Below are positions 109 to 22,321 of a DNA stretch of 64,000 bases, piece after piece. The notes below the pieces were generated by a model. That model worked only from the letters and a program-made list of their open reading frames with translations. It did not search any database and was not told the DNA's origin. The DNA is from Promethearchaeia archaeon (GTDB lineage: Archaea > Asgardarchaeota > Lokiarchaeia > Sigyniarchaeales > SOKP01), in the NCBI GenBank assembly GCA_029856155.1, contig JAHQWL010000102.1, positions 1 through 64,000 of the forward strand. Direction: 5' to 3'. Both the position numbers and the translations under genes were made by a program. Every line of letters begins with the position of its first letter. Positions within the stretch are counted from its first letter, which is position 1.

Positions 109-1629
109 TTACTTTTTTCCCTTAATGTCAACATTTAAATCTTCTAATTCTTCCTTATACGGTTTCACAGGCTTTAAGTAATCAATTGGAGTATCACACA
201 CCCAACATACATTTTCTAAATTGGTTAACGCTCTCGCACAGTTTTCACAATAAATCGCACCACACTCACAAATATATGTGAATCTTAACACTGCACCCCG
301 ACAGATTAAGCAAATTTTAGTTTCTTTGGAAATTGCCACTTTTTCTTCAGTCATAAAAGCAGGCAACATAGTCCGTTTCTCAAGAATTTCCTCAATATGT
401 TCGTTTAAATGAGCCAATTTTATACGCTCATCCATTGGTGCCCCCATCTCCTTTAATTTTTCCCATAAATCTGATTGCTTAATTAATTTAGATTGTTCAT
501 TTGCAATCCTCTCTATTAATTCTTTATACCCAAATCTTTCAGATATTTTTTGAGCTTGAGTTAAAAATCTTCTAGCTTTCTTTAGATCAGAAGTTAATAA
601 AGAAAGTTTTGCCTGTAAAAGGTAAGTTTCGGCTAAAATTGCATACAAATGCTGACGTTCAGCAAGATTCAATAATTCTTGAATATATGGCTGGATCTCA
701 TCTAATATTTCTGGATCATTAGTTATCCGAAGTTCAATTAAAAATAAATCGCACAAATTTATAATGGATTCATACCGTTGTTCATAAGCTATGGTATTGT
801 CCATAGCCAATTCTTTAAAAATATCTTCCGATTTAATACGATCTCTTGCTCGCAGACTTGATTTTAATAATAAAGCATTGGTATACTGATACAACATGTA
901 TGTCCTTTTATTATCAGATTTCTCTTTAAGTTCGCACAACTGATCAAGGTAAACTTTTGCTTCTTTAATATTTCCCTTTTTAATCAAGATATGAATTAAG
1001 GTACCTAATGGATATGACAACAGAGGTCCATGATTAACCTTAACAGCTTCCTTAGCATACATTATTGCTTTATCATATTCTTTCATCCGAATATATTTGT
1101 CAGCAATATTATTAAGACTAGCAGAAATCAATTCTTTATTACTTGTATCTTTAGCAAGTTCATAAGCTTTTTTATTTAGTTCTAGGGAAGGTTGAATTTC
1201 TCCTTTAAAATAATGATTATTAGCTTTTATCCTTACCAAAAAAGATTCTCTTTCTCTTAAATCTATTCTAAATCTTTCTTTAATTATTTTAAATAGATCT
1301 TCTGCTTGTTTAACTATATTTTCACTCTGACTTATATTTCCCATCATAGAATGTGCATATGCTTTAATAGTTAAAGCATCAAAGGATGTAAGTAAATCTC
1401 CTTGTTTTTGACTTTCTTGAAAAATATCATCAGCGCTCTTAATGGCATCCAAAAAGTTTCCTGATTTATATAATAGATAAGCTTTAAGAAGTTTACATGA
1501 GAGCAGTTCCTGAGCTTTTAAGTTATCCCTTTTCTCTAATTCCAAAACGATTTGGAAAGCCTTCTTAATTTCACCTTGATCCATTAGTTGTTTTGCTTGC
1601 TTTAATTCTATAAGTTCAGAACGAGACAT
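109..1629 (-). CDS. TPR-repeat protein with C-terminal Cys8 RING-like zinc finger
   Basis: Helical TPR-like repeats (e.g. ASLNNIADKYIRMKEYDKAIMYAKEA); C-terminus CLIC-x9-CEC-x4-CENC-x10-CWVC. Confidence 0.75.
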   Translation of the reverse strand: MSRSELIELKQAKQLMDQGEIKKAFQIVLELEKRDNLKAQELLSCKLLKAYLLYKSGNFLDAIKSADDIFQESQKQGDLLTSFDALTIKAYAHSMMGNISQSENIVKQAEDLFKIIKERFRIDLRERESFLVRIKANNHYFKGEIQPSLELNKKAYELAKDTSNKELISASLNNIADKYIRMKEYDKAIMYAKEAVKVNHGPLLSYPLGTLIHILIKKGNIKEAKVYLDQLCELKEKSDNKRTYMLYQYTNALLLKSSLRARDRIKSEDIFKELAMDNTIAYEQRYESIINLCDLFLIELRITNDPEILDEIQPYIQELLNLAERQHLYAILAETYLLQAKLSLLTSDLKKARRFLTQAQKISERFGYKELIERIANEQSKLIKQSDLWEKLKEMGAPMDERIKLAHLNEHIEEILEKRTMLPAFMTEEKVAISKETKICLICRGAVLRFTYICECGAIYCENCARALTNLENVCWVCDTPIDYLKPVKPYKEELEDLNVDIKGKK

Positions 1630-1800
1630 CTTTTTGATAAATTTGATAGTTTTATTCTATTTTGGATCTATTTACTATTATAAGCTAATAGCTATTTTAA
1701 ATATAATGCAAAAATCCAAATTTCTATGTGTCTTTAAAATAAGATAATTATATGTTAGTAAAATAAAATTAAAAAAAGAATAAGAAAAAAAATTGATTAA

Positions 1801-1887
1801 TTATAGGTCTTTCAATCCAAATCTGTATCTTTTTGGATGAGAAACAAAATCTCCGAGTGTTGCATCCATACCTTTTTTATTTGACAT
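1801..1887 (-). CDS. 28-aa micro-peptide A (MSNKKGMDATLGDFVSHPKRYRFGLKDL)
   Basis: Manual translation; GAGGT Shine-Dalgarno-like site upstream; same-length paralog at 2175-2261; TATA/operator upstream and T-rich tract downstream. Confidence 0.75.
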   Translation of the reverse strand: MSNKKGMDATLGDFVSHPKRYRFGLKDL

Positions 1888-1937
1888 TTTTTTTTACCTC
1901 TGTGTTTTCTTATACTTATAATATAGATTTGATTCAA

Positions 1938-1973
1938 TATATAGTTTTTATTGCGGAACTTTGAGTGAAGTTC
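1938..1973 (-). promoter_or_regulatory. TATA/BRE promoter with upstream palindromic operator GAACTT-N6-AAGTTC (copy 1)
   Basis: TATATA 1938-1943, A-rich BRE-like stretch, palindrome 1956-1973; same layout and spacing at 2434-2469. Confidence 0.65.
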
Positions 1974-2174
1974 GAATTTAAAGGAATGTTATGAAACAAA
2001 ATTAGATAGTTTTTTTTTCTGAATAGATTCAGGGCTAATGACAAATTTTATTCAATAATTAAATCAATTATTAAAGATTTAAGAGAAACTATGTTTGTTT
2101 CTATTTTTAATATAAGTAAAATGAATAAAAATCATAAATAAAAAGAAGAAAAAATAAGAAAAAAAACTAATTAA

Positions 2175-2261
2175 TTATAGGTCTTTCCATCCAAAGGAGT
2201 ATTTCTTTGGATTTGAAAGATAATCCGAAAGGGTTGCTTTCATACCTTTTTTATTTGACAT
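2175..2261 (-). CDS. 28-aa micro-peptide B (MSNKKGMKATLSDYLSNPKKYSFGWKDL)
   Basis: Paralog of 1801-1887, no indels, same GAGGT leader. Confidence 0.75.
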   Translation of the reverse strand: MSNKKGMKATLSDYLSNPKKYSFGWKDL

Positions 2262-2305
2262 TTTTTTTACCTCTTTGTTTTCTTAATATTATAAAAATTA
2301 TTTGA

Positions 2306-2383
2306 TTAATCTCGAATGATGTCTTGAGAAACAATGACATCATTCCTTATCTTGATAATTCGAGTCTGATTTATTTTTTTCAT
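2306..2383 (-). CDS. 25-aa micro-peptide C (MKKINQTRIIKIRNDVIVSQDIIRD)
   Basis: Same AAGAAAACAAAGAGGT leader as peptide B; first gene behind operator copy 2. Confidence 0.5.
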   Translation of the reverse strand: MKKINQTRIIKIRNDVIVSQDIIRD

Positions 2384-2433
2384 TTTTTTTTTAACCTCTT
2401 TGTTTTCTTAATTATAATACAGATAAACATTAT

Positions 2434-2469
2434 TATATAGTTTTTATTACGGAACTTCGTGCGAAGTTC
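2434..2469 (-). promoter_or_regulatory. TATA/BRE promoter with palindromic operator GAACTTCG-TG-CGAAGTTC (copy 2)
   Basis: TATATA 2434-2439; perfect 8-2-8 palindrome 2452-2469; lies between the peptide genes and the divergent regulator. Confidence 0.65.
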
Positions 2470-2549
2470 GAATATTTAAGAAATAATTTAAATAGTAAAA
2501 AAACATATCTATAAATAATTAAAGAATTTAATTAAGGATCTCTTAAGCT

Positions 2550-4445
2550 ATGAGTGTAATTAATTATCCTCCAGAGGAGATATATAAAACTCCAAAATTT
2601 GGAAAAAGAAATTTTGAACATATTATTCTCTGGATGTTATCTAATAATGATGAATGTCAGTGGTCAGATTTCACTGAAAAACCACTTGAGCTTAGTTTAT
2701 CTACCTTATCTAAGTATCTGTCAATGTTAAAAGGTAGGGGTTATGTTGATAATTATGCTCGAGGGCATTATAAGATAACTCCAGAAGGTCAAAAGAGATT
2801 TCATGAAGTCTCTGGAGTTCTTAGGAAGAAGAGGAAATTAAATTATCCTCCTGATGTTATTAAAAGAAGAAGAAATTACGATCATTGGATTCTTTGGATG
2901 GTATATAACAATGATTATTTGAAATGGTCCAATTTTCTTGAAGAACCACTTTCTATAAATCAATCATCCTTATCAAAAAATATGAATTTGTTAATGGATA
3001 AGAGATTTGTAATAAAAGAGAATAAGAGGTATAGAATCACTCAATCAGGTAAAATGGAATATTCAAGAATGTTACAAAACTACGATTTAGATAGACAATC
3101 AATTTTAGACGATGAAACCAAACGAATTGAGGAGATTACTAAAAAAACTGTCAACTTTTTTGAAAATTATGATATTAAAAATGAAGATATTCAATTTAGG
3201 TTTCTCAACAATGTTTTAAGATTAGATTATACAAGAGTGAAAGCTATGTTAAGAGATGAGGAAGAATTTAACAAGATTTTACTTTTTCTTTCAATTAATC
3301 ATCCAGATCAATATCCTAATAGTATTTCTATGGAGGATTTTTCAAATACATACGGAATTAAGAAGTCAAAATTAGAGTATTATATAGATGAAATTGTCGA
3401 AAATCAGATATATCCAATAAAATTTTTCAAATTAGTTATGTCTCCAGATGAATATTATTATTTCCAGGAAAACGAAAGATTAGAGATTATGCTTCGGGCT
3501 ATAACAGAAGATTATATAACAAAATATACGTATTTAGGTAAGTTATTTTCAAGGACACTAGATTTACGAGCAATACTTAATAATATCTTAGATGATATAT
3601 GTGGACTATTATTTAATGAATATTTTAGAGAAACATTAACTGAATTTTTACATCAATATATTAATTACTTAGCTTATAAAATTGAAGCGAAAGTTGAATT
3701 GAGAGAACGATATGAAAAATTAGAAGGAATAATCTGGCGGGATATGATTGATTTATTTCAATCTCAGAGTTCTGGAGGTTTAAAAAACCAATATAATGAA
3801 AAAATTAGAGAGATTGATAAAGATCTTGAGTCTAATCCGGATAATATCGATTTATACAACACTAAAATATCAATTTTGCTCTATTATGCTCAATTTGATG
3901 ATGCACTGAAATTATTAGAAGAGATGTTAGAGATATTCCAAGAAAATGAGATTGACATTAAGATGAAAAAAGCATCAGTTTTTAGAAGAATGCGAGAAAT
4001 AGAGAGTGGTTTAGATATAATTAATGAATTACTTGAAAAATATCCGGAAAATAATGATCTTCTAAATTATAAAGTCTATTGGCTGCAATTTTTAAATAGA
4101 AAAGAAGAAGCATTACAATTAATCCAAGATTTAGTTGATAAAGTTCCTGATAACGGAACATACCATGATACGTATGGAGAAATTTTAATGTATTACGAAG
4201 AGTATGAACAAGCTATAGAAAAATTCTTGAAAGCAATTGAAGTGGCTAAAGATGAGTGGTATATAAATCAAACTTACATAAAGTTAGGAATTTGTTATAA
4301 AATGCTTGAAAATTATGATTTAGCACTTAAAAATCTTAAAAAAGGGAGAGAATTAACAAGAAAAAGCTCCACTGACGATGATACTAAGGAAAAATGGCTT
4401 ACAATTGTCGATCTTTTTATTAATGAAATAAATGAATTTCTCTAA
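2550..4445 (+). CDS. Putative transcription regulator: tandem winged-helix domains plus C-terminal TPR domain
   Basis: Two homologous wHTH units (ILWM...STLSKYLSMLKGRGYV...YKITPEG; ILWM...SSLSKNMNLLMDKRFV...YRITQSG), a possible third; TPR motifs (YHDTYGEILMYYEEYEQAIEKFLKAI). Confidence 0.75.
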   Translation: MSVINYPPEEIYKTPKFGKRNFEHIILWMLSNNDECQWSDFTEKPLELSLSTLSKYLSMLKGRGYVDNYARGHYKITPEGQKRFHEVSGVLRKKRKLNYPPDVIKRRRNYDHWILWMVYNNDYLKWSNFLEEPLSINQSSLSKNMNLLMDKRFVIKENKRYRITQSGKMEYSRMLQNYDLDRQSILDDETKRIEEITKKTVNFFENYDIKNEDIQFRFLNNVLRLDYTRVKAMLRDEEEFNKILLFLSINHPDQYPNSISMEDFSNTYGIKKSKLEYYIDEIVENQIYPIKFFKLVMSPDEYYYFQENERLEIMLRAITEDYITKYTYLGKLFSRTLDLRAILNNILDDICGLLFNEYFRETLTEFLHQYINYLAYKIEAKVELRERYEKLEGIIWRDMIDLFQSQSSGGLKNQYNEKIREIDKDLESNPDNIDLYNTKISILLYYAQFDDALKLLEEMLEIFQENEIDIKMKKASVFRRMREIESGLDIINELLEKYPENNDLLNYKVYWLQFLNRKEEALQLIQDLVDKVPDNGTYHDTYGEILMYYEEYEQAIEKFLKAIEVAKDEWYINQTYIKLGICYKMLENYDLALKNLKKGRELTRKSSTDDDTKEKWLTIVDLFINEINEFL

Positions 4446-4583: not shown

Positions 4584-4988
4584 ATGGATGAATTGAGAAG
4601 TAAGCGATATCAGGATAAGATCCAGCATATATTTGATTATATGCAAGAGCTTCCATTAAAACCGAAAAATGAACTTGAAAAACGTGGAATTTTTTATTCT
4701 CTTCAAACGTCCATTGAAGCTATGGTAGATTTAATAGCAATGCTTGTAAAAGATTTAGGGATTCAAGTAAAAGATGATAACAGAAATATTTCTGAAATAG
4801 TACAAAAAAGAAACTTAAAACACGAATTGGGAGAGAAATTAAAAAAAGCCAATGGTTTAAGAAATATAATTGTTCACCGCTATAATGAAATTGATGAAAA
4901 ATTAATATTAGATTCTGTAAAAGACGTTAAAGATCTCTTAGTACGTTGGATTGAAATTATTGAGGAATGCATAAATGAAATTAAATGA
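4584..4988 (+). CDS. HEPN/DUF86 (HepT-like) ribonuclease toxin
   Basis: RX4HXY motif RNIIVHRY; overlaps the downstream MNT gene. Confidence 0.85.
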   Translation: MDELRSKRYQDKIQHIFDYMQELPLKPKNELEKRGIFYSLQTSIEAMVDLIAMLVKDLGIQVKDDNRNISEIVQKRNLKHELGEKLKKANGLRNIIVHRYNEIDEKLILDSVKDVKDLLVRWIEIIEECINEIK

Positions 4989-5373
4989 ACTTAGACAAAT
5001 AAGAGAAGATTTAAATTTTTTAGAGGAGAAATATGACGTAATAGTTTATGGATCCTATGTGGAGGGATCAATGCGCCCAAATTCAGATATTGATATATCT
5101 ATACTTTCATACGAGACAAAGAATGGTGAAAATATTGAAATACTAAAAAAATTTTTAGGAAAGTTTCCTCTGAAGTATGATATCAGAATTTTTGAATTGT
5201 TTCCTATATATATTCAAATTTCGATTATTGAAAATTATCAAGTTATTTTTGGAGATCCTCTTGAAATATCAGAATATTTTTATTCATTTAGAAAAATGTG
5301 GGATGATTGTAAATACCGTATCTTTTCTAACCAATTTTCAAGCTACAGCGAACGTCTATCTTTAATAAAATAA
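4975..5373 (+). CDS. Minimal nucleotidyltransferase (MntA-like antitoxin)
   Basis: GS-x10-DxD motif GSYVEGSMRPNSDID. Confidence 0.85.
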   Translation: MKLNELRQIREDLNFLEEKYDVIVYGSYVEGSMRPNSDIDISILSYETKNGENIEILKKFLGKFPLKYDIRIFELFPIYIQISIIENYQVIFGDPLEISEYFYSFRKMWDDCKYRIFSNQFSSYSERLSLIK

Positions 5374-5524: not shown

Positions 5525-6190
5525 ATGATTAAAGAAATTGAGCTGCAATATCAAAATATAATAGAACATTTTCCTAACACAGTAACTATTGAAAATGAAA
5601 TTACTCACATTAAAATTGAATTAATTAAGGGAATTATTTTAGAAATTGATTATTCTAAATATCCTAAAAAACCAAAAGTTAAGCTTATTAACCAAACAGG
5701 GAAAGTATATAAAAAATTAAGTAATGACATCACTTCTTTAAAAAATTGGAAAATAGATAAGACTAAGTCTATTTTAAAGGTTATTAATGAAATTATTTTT
5801 ATTTTAAAGGATCTTCAATCAAATATAGTAAAAATAAAAAGGGAGTTACTAATTGGATTTTTAGCGTTATGTCGGGCGCATCATCCAAAAGAATTTTTAG
5901 GAATCCTTAAAATGGATAAAAATGTATTTACTGAATTTATTTTACCACCAGGTGCAATCACTTCGAAACATTCAGGAGTATTCTTTCCAAGTAGACTCCC
6001 AACAAATCGATATTATCAAGGAACTATTCATTCACATCCATCTGGAAATTTACATCCTTCTCTACAAGATTTAAATAGTATATTTAAAGGGAATAGATTT
6101 CACTTTATTGTAGGTTTTCCATATAATTTATACAATATTAAATGTTACGATAAAAATGGTACAGAACTTCAATTTAAAGTGATTAGCTAA
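5525..6190 (+). CDS. JAB/MPN+ (JAMM) metalloprotease with N-terminal RWD/UBC-like domain
   Basis: JAMM motif E...HSHPSGNLHPSLQD; N-terminal YPKKP resembles the YPxxP turn of RWD/UBC folds. Confidence 0.75.
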   Translation: MIKEIELQYQNIIEHFPNTVTIENEITHIKIELIKGIILEIDYSKYPKKPKVKLINQTGKVYKKLSNDITSLKNWKIDKTKSILKVINEIIFILKDLQSNIVKIKRELLIGFLALCRAHHPKEFLGILKMDKNVFTEFILPPGAITSKHSGVFFPSRLPTNRYYQGTIHSHPSGNLHPSLQDLNSIFKGNRFHFIVGFPYNLYNIKCYDKNGTELQFKVIS

Positions 6191-20866: not shown

Positions 20867-22321
20867 ATGGTTGAATTTAATCCAAAAGTTTTAAGTAAAG
20901 AGGAATTAAGTGCAATCTCAGCTGGAGTAAATGAAGAAGAATTATTATTATTTGATAAACATTTATTAGACAACTATTATGATAGTAATGTGTTCCTTGA
21001 AGCTAAAGAACCAGGGTCCCCTTGGGTTGTTGTAAAGGACTTTAAAACGGGAAAACAATCTGAAAAGCTTGATTGCACTTCTCAGTATTGGTCATTAGCA
21101 TTAGGATTTGCGCATCCTGATGTAAATTATGCTGTGGCAGAACAAATGAAAAGATTTACTCATATTAAATCGGAAGGTGTATTTCCTTCTCGTGCTAAGT
21201 TTATCAATAAATTATCTGAATTATGTCCTGGTAGATTAAAAGGAGGAAGAGTTAAGATAAATAATGAAGGCGGGAGTTTAGCACTTGAATCAGCTGTAAA
21301 ATTCGCTTTAGTTGCATCTAAAGGTGGAGATCATTTCCTAACCTTCCGAGGTGGCTACCATGGAAATACTTTAGCTATGATATCCGCATCTCAACCTTTC
21401 CATTCAATAACCAGATTTAGACCTTTTGGAATAGATTTCTTTACAAGGGTCCCACAACCTTATTGTTATCGATGTTTGTGGAATTATAAAAATGGATTAT
21501 ATGGGAAACAGGATCCCGAATGTAATTTAGAGTGCTTTAATTTGGTTAAAGAATATTTAATGGGTCTAACTTCTAGAAAATTAGCAGGAGTTATTTTAGA
21601 ACCTTGGCAGGCAGCAGGAGGACATGTACCTTTCCCGCCAGATTTTCTTGTCAAATTAAGAGAAGTTTGTGATGAAGAGAGGATCTTCATAATATACGAT
21701 GAGTCTCAAACAGGTGTGTGGAGAACAGGTAAATATTTTACTTTAACTGAAAAATATGAAAAAGAACTCGGAATTGATGTATCTCCCGATATGATGTGTT
21801 TTACAAAAGCTATTGGTGGAGGTTTTGCATTAGGAGCTATGATTGTATCAAGTAAAATAAAAAAGAGATTTGGGCCATCTGAAGATCATACAACTTTCTG
21901 TAATACACCTATAGGGTGTACAGCAGGGCTTGCTTCAATGATGGTAATAGAAAGATCAAAAATTGGAGAAAATTGTGAAGAAAGAGGTAAACAGATCACT
22001 AAGCGATTAAAAGAACTTCAGGAAAAATATAATGTAATAGGAGATATACGTGGCCCAGGTTTATTCATAGGAATTGAATTGGTTAAAAACCAAAAATCGA
22101 GAGAACCTTTTACTGAACTCATGGAGGAAATGCTCCATGAGGGTGTAAAACAAAATATACTTTTTGGACCAAGTATGCCCTATTTTAGTGGAACAGGAAA
22201 GTTGTTAAAGAGAAATTTAATAAAAGTAAAACCTCCACTCAATATTACTGAAGAAGATGCTGATTTTATCTGTGATAAATTTGAAAGTGTATTAAAATCA
22301 TCAATTAGCAATCTAAAGTAG
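20867..22321 (+). CDS. Class III PLP aminotransferase
   Basis: GYHGNT, EPWQAAGG, DESQTGVWRTG, PLP-Lys FTKAIGGG. Confidence 0.9.
   Translation: MVEFNPKVLSKEELSAISAGVNEEELLLFDKHLLDNYYDSNVFLEAKEPGSPWVVVKDFKTGKQSEKLDCTSQYWSLALGFAHPDVNYAVAEQMKRFTHIKSEGVFPSRAKFINKLSELCPGRLKGGRVKINNEGGSLALESAVKFALVASKGGDHFLTFRGGYHGNTLAMISASQPFHSITRFRPFGIDFFTRVPQPYCYRCLWNYKNGLYGKQDPECNLECFNLVKEYLMGLTSRKLAGVILEPWQAAGGHVPFPPDFLVKLREVCDEERIFIIYDESQTGVWRTGKYFTLTEKYEKELGIDVSPDMMCFTKAIGGGFALGAMIVSSKIKKRFGPSEDHTTFCNTPIGCTAGLASMMVIERSKIGENCEERGKQITKRLKELQEKYNVIGDIRGPGLFIGIELVKNQKSREPFTELMEEMLHEGVKQNILFGPSMPYFSGTGKLLKRNLIKVKPPLNITEEDADFICDKFESVLKSSISNLK

Follow-up and report, generated by a model that had tools for sequence, protein, structure and literature searches.

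How are three genes for peptides of 25-28 amino acids, lying side by side in an Asgard archaeon, controlled, and what might their products do? The genes are found in a stretch of 64,000 nucleotides (positions 1 to 64,000 of contig JAHQWL010000102.1, called the window in the following) from a metagenome-assembled genome of the Promethearchaeota, which comprises 4.1 Mb and of which another contig, C65, also enters the analysis. Two short transcription units on the minus strand are contained within 1760-2500, unit 1 encoding peptide A and unit 2 encoding peptide C followed by peptide B. Divergent from unit 2 lies a gene (2550-4445) for a protein of 631 residues with two winged helix-turn-helix (wHTH) domains and a tetratricopeptide repeat (TPR) domain, referred to here as the regulator. 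Both units are headed by a palindrome that is conserved in the genus and whose type follows the lineage of the regulator. The explanation that we favor, and consider rather probable, is that the regulator is a lineage-specific transcription factor, probably a self-controlling activator, which drives a regulon of intracellular micro-proteins.

A conserved operator tied to a regulator lineage

The two units are built alike. In both, 69 nt separate the start of the upstream palindrome GAACTT-N6-AAGTTC from the first ATG, a TATATA element lies at 12 nt from the palindrome, GAGGT precedes the ATG by 8-10 nt in all three small open reading frames (sORFs), and runs of T follow unit 1, unit 2 and the copy of unit 2 on C65. 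Peptides A and B are 71% identical without any insertion or deletion, and the gene of the regulator starts 80 nt from the palindrome of unit 2. A preliminary description of the window had claimed this architecture, namely three unannotated sORFs with GAGGT leaders in two units, equally spaced TATATA elements and palindromes, downstream T-tracts, A and B as indel-free paralogs, a divergent gene with tandem wHTH and TPR domains, and an activator-type position of the palindrome upstream of the B recognition element (BRE) and TATA box; all these elements were found, and the promoter layout agrees with the proposed position of the palindrome.

Is the palindrome an operator or a chance repeat? Exact matches occur twice in the window (1956-1973 and 2452-2469) where 0.37 would be expected, two or more being reached in 5 of 100 shuffled sequences, and three times in the whole genome, while the reversed control sequence does not occur at all. 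The third copy (C65:28947-28964) heads a C-then-B arrangement that is a near-copy of unit 2, and hence all three copies returned by this genome-wide scan, which the preliminary description had proposed as a check, head a peptide unit. Of the 54 genomes of the genus, 39 contain the extended motif TTCGAACTTC-N4-RAAGTT, with one to four sites each and 70 in total, versus two occurrences of the reversed control. At 34 of 47 distinct sites a Shine-Dalgarno sequence and the ATG of an 18-35-codon ORF follow at +80 to +120, an arrangement seen at 1.1% of random positions in this genome, and longer genes stand behind four further sites. When the 47 sites are aligned, high information is confined to the operator, to AAACTATATA and to a short ATTAAAATTAAG near the expected transcription start. 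A synteny check, also proposed earlier, placed divergent peptide units next to the regulator at 19 of the 47 sites, where the operator lies between the regulator's own promoter and the peptide promoter, 55-84 nt upstream of the ATG of a regulator orthologue.

The link between operator and regulator becomes clearer when orthologues and paralogues are compared. In at least 15 genomes of the genus, the matches of cassette DNA and of regulator protein lie side by side in divergent orientation, and across the genus orthologues with 63-93% identity adjoin the operator. Sixteen of 20 orthologues (N-terminal identity of 65-100%) have a palindrome of the ACTTC type 55-84 nt before their ATG, the four exceptions being one N-masked sequence, two decayed sites without a peptide gene and one weak, imperfect palindrome. 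Among 22 more distant relatives (identity of 61% or less) the ACTTC type is found only once, in the most distant of all (L059), whereas at least 11 carry [AG]ACTC-N4-6-GAGT[TC] at the equivalent place, flanked by their own TATA box on one side and by a divergent AAACTATATA promoter on the other. For orthologues and paralogues together, the lineage-specific palindrome is situated 55-119 nt upstream of the ATG. The change is mirrored across both half-sites (ACTTC/GAAGT versus ACTCC/GGAGT), as co-evolution of a two-fold symmetric protein unit with its site would predict. Moreover, four genomes in which a paralogue is the best match to the regulator (G010, G012, G020, G024) contain no operator match; since these genomes are kin to each other, the co-absence is read qualitatively and not as a statistical test.

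It could be imagined that the palindrome is read by another factor and that the neighboring regulator is unrelated to it, or that the sORF units are non-coding or leader RNAs with incidental reading frames, and the 28 of 47 sites at which the unit is an orphan without adjoining regulator would be in line with this. However, an operator type that follows the regulator lineage, and the lack of the operator in genomes that lack the orthologue, argue for the regulator itself, and the coding properties of the frames discussed below speak against the RNA reading, so that we regard this alternative as improbable.

What else is placed under this operator? Several unrelated peptide families were found behind it. 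In three genomes of the genus (L091:1593-2300, L094, L101), the same operator and promoter precede a histidine kinase of 234-236 amino acids (HisKA and HATPase_c) without a sensor domain, and in some other genomes membrane proteins follow, suggesting that the regulon is not purely peptidic.

Architecture of the regulator

Pfam assigns HTH_34 (2.9e-9), HTH_45 (1.3e-7) and HVO_A0261_N, and weakly MarR_2 and HTH_5, to the N-terminal part of the regulator and TPR_12, TPR_14 and TPR_2 to the remainder; the DNA-binding matches belong to winged-helix families only, and no HTH_3/XRE domain was found by Pfam. The AlphaFold2 model (mean pLDDT 80.7, pTM 0.39) agrees with this layout and places wHTH1 at 22-87, wHTH2 at 110-178, then a long helix, a third winged-helix-like unit at 237-306, further helices and, beyond a disordered linker (379-413), about six TPRs (411-631). 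The modelled DNA-binding units follow the order helix-helix-helix-strand-strand, and the recognition helices of wHTH1 and wHTH2 are alike and nearly invariant (S-T-L-S-K-Y and S-S-L-S-K-N). Together with half-sites that are 11 bp apart from centre to centre, such similar helices would fit one chain or a dimer bound to two successive major grooves. With wHTH domains and a palindrome in its own upstream region, the protein has the hallmarks of a winged-helix factor of the MarR/PadR-like kind and is a candidate DNA-binding protein.

The module formed by the N-terminal 410 residues is confined to a single family of the phylum, where 56 of 68 genomes have matches at E <1e-100, with as many as six or more copies in one genome; outside this family, a sample of 301 genomes gave only N-terminal matches that are weak and at the level expected of generic winged helices. 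Foldseek returned no match at E ≤0.001 for these 410 residues, and the weak fold matches (Foldseek E 2e-3 to 6e-3, TM <0.3) were RPC62/C82, SarS (PDB 1p4x), SarZ, MarR, NadR and PadR-like proteins. The TPR domain (about 411-631) superposes by VIA-align on several peptide-binding TPR proteins, SycD/PcrH with translocator peptides, CHIP and Sti1 with C-terminal tails, and on LGN (Z 16-18), on RapI (Z 16.4) and on PlcR-PapR (Z 16.3). All these matches are tied with designed TPRs and dozens of unrelated TPR proteins, indicating that the similarity is generic.

Peptides A and B are coding and probably intracellular

Peptides A and B are encoded by genuine protein-coding genes. In 14 distinct variants the start, the length (24-30 amino acids), the stop and the motif T-L-x-D-[FY]-x-x-[HN]-P-K-K-Y-x-F-G-x-K-D-L are kept, the exact C-terminus KDL being invariant in all 14, and a profile of the peptides has matches in 45 of 52 genomes of the genus. 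The ratio of nonsynonymous to synonymous substitution, dN/dS, is 0.26 (proportions of synonymous and nonsynonymous differences, pS 0.51 and pN 0.19, over the last 19 codons), and differences are distributed over the three codon positions as 342/384/610. In the two other frames pS is below pN and stops are present. In one variant, two synonymous changes in the same base pair disrupt the sole hairpin inside the A/B frame (ATCCAAAG/CTTTGGAT, coding for P-K and F-G), which indicates that the constraint acts on the protein and not on RNA structure. The preliminary description would have fallen had the sORFs not been conserved; for A and B, frame, length and stop have been retained under purifying selection. 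Databases add little to this picture: peptides A, B and C are absent from a collection of 15 billion proteins, in which the regulator is unnamed, and no Pfam family was found for A and C. Reading A/B as a PCNA-interacting peptide or PIP box (Q-x-x-[LIM]-x-x-[FY]-[FYLW]) does not hold: the sequence of the micro-peptides is x-A-T-L-x-D-[FY]-h, in which D, K or E stands instead of Q, and only the hydrophobic and aromatic part fits.

The peptides are basic and hydrophilic, with a pI of about 10, a grand average of hydropathy of -0.4 to -1.0 and a maximal 9-residue Kyte-Doolittle mean of 0.1-1.2, and hydropathy analysis detected neither a signal sequence nor a hydrophobic segment, suggesting that they act inside the cell. 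An intracellular role, which had been put forward as at least as likely as quorum sensing, actually fits these properties better than secretion. In extracellular quorum sensing, as carried out by true RRNPP systems, whose peptides leave the cell by a Sec signal or PptAB and are matured, the peptides would be exported, accumulate, be re-imported and bind the receptor. The layout of a TPR regulator with an adjacent small peptide gene would suit such a system, as would the turnover of peptide families between species, reminiscent of pherotypes. Leaderless RRNPPA peptides with export routes that are not known are on record (PMC12700828). Leaderless export is still compatible with the sequences. 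Nevertheless, the loci examined contain no consistent transporter or peptidase neighbor, A and B are homologous to the tail of a cytoplasmic-looking protein of 46-94 amino acids (see below), and the regulator does not appear to be an RRNPP homologue, making this explanation very improbable.

Peptide C is likely coding as well, but its coding status is less secure than that of A and B. Six variants keep frame, length and stop and differ at their C-termini, and synonymous variation is scarce. Peptide C belongs to a loose family of basic peptides of 21-29 amino acids that are found behind the same operator in other species and share the pattern M-K-K-x-x-K, then h-I-K-I-R/N-N, often with G-Y or N-P after it. 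A perfect 10-bp hairpin lies inside sORF C (window 2316-2350, GAATGATGTC / GACATCATTC) and constitutes one of the arguments for an RNA function. Three of the six variants can form the stem, one of them with the compensatory-looking change GTC/GAC to GTA/TAC, and three cannot. Furthermore, a fourth operator-like site in the same genome, TTCGAACTTTGTAAAAAGTT with AAAAACTATAT on the minus strand of C65 (about 21,400-21,680, with the site at about 21,650; L007:280-580), right after a Ras-like GTPase gene, is followed by a G+C-rich stretch of about 150 nt that ends in a long T-run, contains no peptide ORF and may be a small RNA; Rfam returned no match for this stretch. For the cassette itself, the RNA reading was dropped: an Rfam search of window positions 1600-2600 gave nothing relevant, and the predicted folds of the three micro-mRNAs are not unusually stable (z +0.73, -1.98 and -1.07), which stands beside the frame-specific purifying selection on A/B and the conservation of Shine-Dalgarno sequence, ATG, stop and length. 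Peptide C was also considered as a stand-alone tail of 84-residue MVQVL-type proteins (...IHYRNYGNF), a likeness seen by eye; a hidden Markov model built from 22 C-type peptides reached E 0.38 at best, for another family, and the idea was rejected for now.

Longer relatives of A and B accompany Ras-like GTPases

Where does the A/B motif come from? A profile built solely from the micro-peptides also matches the last 24 residues or so of ORFs of 46-94 amino acids in this and two sister genera, with E values per genome between 6.6e-10 and 1e-5. The tail of these long forms reads ...K-x-W-K-Q-[ST]-[ML]-G-Y-Y-L-L-H-P-E-K-F-K-F-G-L-K-D-L-K, and they carry a Q one position out of PIP register (K-Q-[ST]-[ML]-G-[YN]-Y-L). 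A and B are thus homologous to this C-terminal tail and represent stand-alone copies of it. About 18 of some 36 long forms are located 0.4-4 kb from the start of a regulator paralogue, in divergent orientation (genomes G001-G024, cross-referenced by eye), for which chance would account in the order of 2%. Eighteen loci that were fetched contain operons of a Ras-family GTPase (PF00071, 6.7e-38), a long A/B form, an 84-residue MVQVL-type protein and an 80-residue protein; no Pfam family was found for the four kinds of small proteins in the paralogue operons, the long A/B forms included, only the GTPase having one, and a search of the ESM Atlas with a 76-residue long form gave scores below 0.8. 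No long form was found in the genome of the window itself, in which a regulator paralogue at C65:22607 is divergent to a Ras-like GTPase. On C65, a Ras-like GTPase is encoded at 21753-22307. The regulator family and the A/B motif hence occur together in at least three paralogue groups, and in the present group the partner is reduced to the bare motif.

Two further observations concern these relatives. At L121, L124 and L127, long-form genes without link to a regulator lie directly upstream of a multi-pass membrane protein of 346-350 amino acids with a C-terminal RING-like zinc finger, behind a promoter region of another kind, with TTTAAAC repeats; the A/B motif thus has a second recurring tie to RING-finger proteins. 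In promoter regions of regulator paralogues of other genomes (L135-L137, L144-L146, L150), a conserved G+C-rich leader with the hairpin GGGAGAG...GAGAGCTC-GTTGTT...AACAAC...GAGCTCTC is situated 3' of the paralogue-type operator and promoter and 5' of Ras-like GTPase operons, and may be a structured leader RNA.

Do the peptides serve as ligands of the regulator next to which they are encoded? In such an intracellular feedback resembling RRNPP systems, unprocessed peptides, A/B through the invariant ...FGxKDL or else C, would bind the groove of the regulator's own TPR domain and switch DNA binding or oligomerization, creating a peptide-gated autoregulatory loop. The operator common to the promoters of regulator and peptides, the superposition of the TPR domain on peptide-binding TPRs, the linkage of A/B-motif proteins to regulators in at least three paralogue groups and the invariant KDL terminus are all consistent with such a loop. 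However, private ligands would be expected to diverge between coexisting paralogous systems, and the A/B motif barely differs between them; moreover, unrelated peptide families and non-peptide genes share one operator, and the structural matches of the TPR domain are non-specific. We consider direct feedback unlikely, albeit with a chance that should be kept in mind. A motif that stays nearly unchanged while the operators diverge favors a common cellular target over one private ligand per receptor.

Proposed mechanism

According to the activator model introduced at the outset, the 631-residue factor, confined to one Asgard family, would recognize GAACTTC-N4-GAAGTTC, most likely through its two similar winged helices, acting either as a built-in pseudo-dimer or as a true dimer. 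We infer DNA binding and the sign of regulation; the operator lies 8-14 bp outside the BRE/TATA elements of both divergent promoters, from where the factor would most likely activate its own gene and the C-B micro-mRNA, and likewise the unlinked units, i.e. unit 1 with peptide A and the copy on C65. The presumed translation products, basic and hydrophilic peptides of 25-28 residues, would be retained inside the cell. As a motif-only version of the tail of long forms, which would be produced under paralogous regulators together with Ras-like GTPases, A/B would probably occupy the binding site of this tail on a shared partner, for which a TPR surface (that of the regulator itself or of the adjacent TPR-RING protein), a RING protein or a GTPase are candidates. 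A and B may then be archaeal microProteins, made on command by a TPR factor and competing for or gating a TPR/RING partner, possibly the regulator itself, a proposal that we make tentatively and rather as a doubtful than as a probable one.

Several points weigh against the activator model. Transcription start sites, translation and DNA binding are predictions throughout, and adjacency does not prove that it is the regulator that recognizes the palindrome and not some other factor. The core promoters look strong, with a consensus-like TATA box, and repression by an oligomer is possible. The pTM of the AlphaFold2 model does not fix the relative arrangement of the domains. In addition, the low synonymous variation of peptide C and the hairpin in half of its variants detract from its standing as a peptide, and since all counts were made over related, non-independent genomes, their statistical weight is overstated.

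Relation to known systems

How does the cassette compare with systems described before? The RRNPP(A) cassettes of Bacillota and phages, Rap/Phr, NprR/NprX, PlcR/PapR, Rgg/SHP, PrgX and AimR/AimP, are the closest in layout (defining features in PMC12700828). In both cases a cytoplasmic DNA-binding protein (here a putative one) with C-terminal TPRs is encoded beside very small peptide genes, the repertoire of which varies by species, and a peptide gene next to the putative receptor, as is characteristic for RRNPP systems, is found divergently in the window and at the 19 regulator-adjacent sites. The differences are the tandem winged helix in place of the XRE-type HTH, canonical TPRs without specific kinship to the core of 5 (or 9) repeats of RRNPP proteins, peptides without export signal, several peptide families per operator and an archaeal host. 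Neither the 120 PDB sequence matches of the regulator nor its Foldseek top 50 contain an RRNPP chain, and neither sequence nor fold gave a specific signal of kinship. The analogy drawn in the preliminary description thus holds for the layout and is not supported for kinship, as the winged helix is not of the XRE type and the TPR domain matches generic TPRs equally well as RapI or PlcR. Searches of open-access papers and preprints on RRNPP in archaea and on Asgard micro-peptides turned up no account of this system.

The position of the operator is reminiscent of archaeal activators. Ptr2 of Methanocaldococcus and TFB-RF1 of Pyrococcus act from sites just upstream of BRE/TATA. Similarly, 8-9 bp separate the operator described here from the BRE/TATA-like element downstream of it, and the expected transcription start is about 50 bp away; a protein bound at the operator could recruit TBP or TFB. 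Unlike in these systems, which employ Lrp and other proteins, the factor here is of the double wHTH-TPR type and one site serves two divergent promoters, as far as can be judged from the sequence. The two-domain winged-helix protein SarS of Staphylococcus (PDB 1p4x) and RPC62/C82 illustrate that tandem winged helices in one chain can replace a dimer on DNA, although the fold match is weak and without sequence relation and those proteins lack a TPR sensor domain.

For the peptides, eukaryotic microProteins offer a precedent. LITTLE ZIPPER and Id proteins are short, derive from one module of a larger protein and act as competitors. A and B likewise retain, from a longer protein family, nothing but the C-terminal motif, the profile match of the 24-30-residue peptides to the long-form tail identifying them as a single module of that family; the differences are the archaeal host and the fact that competition by A/B is only proposed. 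A comparison may also be drawn with TPR domains that recognize protein tails (CHIP/STUB1, Hop/Sti1) and with TPR chaperones of type III secretion (SycD, PcrH, IpgC), to which residues 496-631 show their best structural similarity (Z 16-18, rmsd 1.6-3 Å), A/B ending in the invariant ...KDL; their Z values are tied with designed TPRs and the likeness is generic.

Features of the locus and neighboring genes

The coordinates of all features are collected in Table 1. The TPR-RING gene that follows peptide A is regarded as context and as a possible partner of the module. It is found at the same position only in the closest relatives (G005, G066 and weakly G008), and with synteny restricted to these and the C65 duplicate, the gene was rejected as an obligatory member. 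The region C65:26999-28964 is a segmental duplicate of window 109-2472 and contains the operator, C' (25 amino acids, two substitutions), B' (28 amino acids) and a TPR-RING paralogue, which is 80% identical to the protein of the window and again lies directly after the peptide unit; the contig ends 105 nt past the duplicate operator. Just downstream of the regulator, a HepT-like RNase and an MNT nucleotidyltransferase form a pair of the toxin-antitoxin type with an overlap of 14 nt, followed by a Prok-JAB domain protein (window 4584-5373, 5525-6190). A scanner for bacterial-type promoters and terminators, a tool not built for archaea, was uninformative (7 promoter-like sites versus 8.2 expected, 0 terminators).

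Table 1. Features of the micro-peptide cassette and its flanking genes in window coordinates.
Feature	Position	Strand	Basis and remarks
TPR protein with C-terminal RING-type zinc finger, 506 aa	109..1629	-	Pfam TPR_12, TPR_MalT, zf-C3HC4_3; first gene downstream of sORF A
Probable archaeal oligo-T terminator of unit 1, T-runs (T8, T7) behind sORF A	1771..1792	-	Read from sequence
sORF A, 28 aa, AB-type micro-peptide, C-terminal HPKRYRFGLKDL	1801..1887	-	ORF list, alignment, dN/dS, profile search
Shine-Dalgarno GAGGT of A, 8 nt before ATG	1896..1900	-	Sequence; motif also precedes most operator-linked sORFs
Predicted core promoter of unit 1, AAAAAC + TATATA (1938-1943), BRE/TATA-like	1938..1951	-	AAACTATATA at fixed distance in 47 aligned sites
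Operator 1, TTCGAACTTC-N4-AAAGTTC, orphan unit without adjoining regulator	1956..1976	.	Motif scans, alignment
T-runs after peptide B, probable terminator of unit 2	2146..2166	-	Read from sequence
sORF B, 28 aa, AB-type, second cistron of unit 2; own GAGGT 2269-2273	2175..2261	-	ORF list, alignment, dN/dS
sORF C, 25 aa (MKKINQTRIIKIRNDV...), first cistron of unit 2; GAGGT 2394-2398	2306..2383	-	Six variants compared
Core promoter of unit 2, BRE/TATA-like, TATATA 2434-2439	2434..2447	-	Sequence, 47-site alignment
Operator 2, TTCGAACTTC-N4-GAAGTTC, perfect 7+4+7 palindrome between two divergent promoters	2452..2472	.	Motif scans
TTTAAATA, probable TATA box of regulator gene, about 14 nt from operator	2487..2494	+	Opposite-strand ACTATTTAAAT conserved in regulator-adjacent sites
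Regulator, 631 aa, two wHTH domains + TPR	2550..4445	+	Pfam, AlphaFold2 models, orthologues

Implications

Transcription regulation in archaea is poorly mapped and in Asgard archaea almost unexplored. The locus constitutes a complete and testable unit in such a lineage, consisting of a lineage-specific factor, a probable 18-bp operator with paralogue-specific variants and a regulon, possibly gated by peptides, that is made up mostly of genes of 21-30 codons, which are overlooked by annotation pipelines. The relation of A and B to the tail of proteins encoded together with Ras/Rab-like GTPases provides a handle on the function of one clade of these "eukaryote-like" GTPases. Signalling by peptides inside archaeal cells likewise becomes a possibility. 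If A and B indeed act as microProteins, the closest prokaryotic relatives of eukaryotes would possess an intracellular switch that is based on peptides and connected to Ras/Rab-like GTPase modules.

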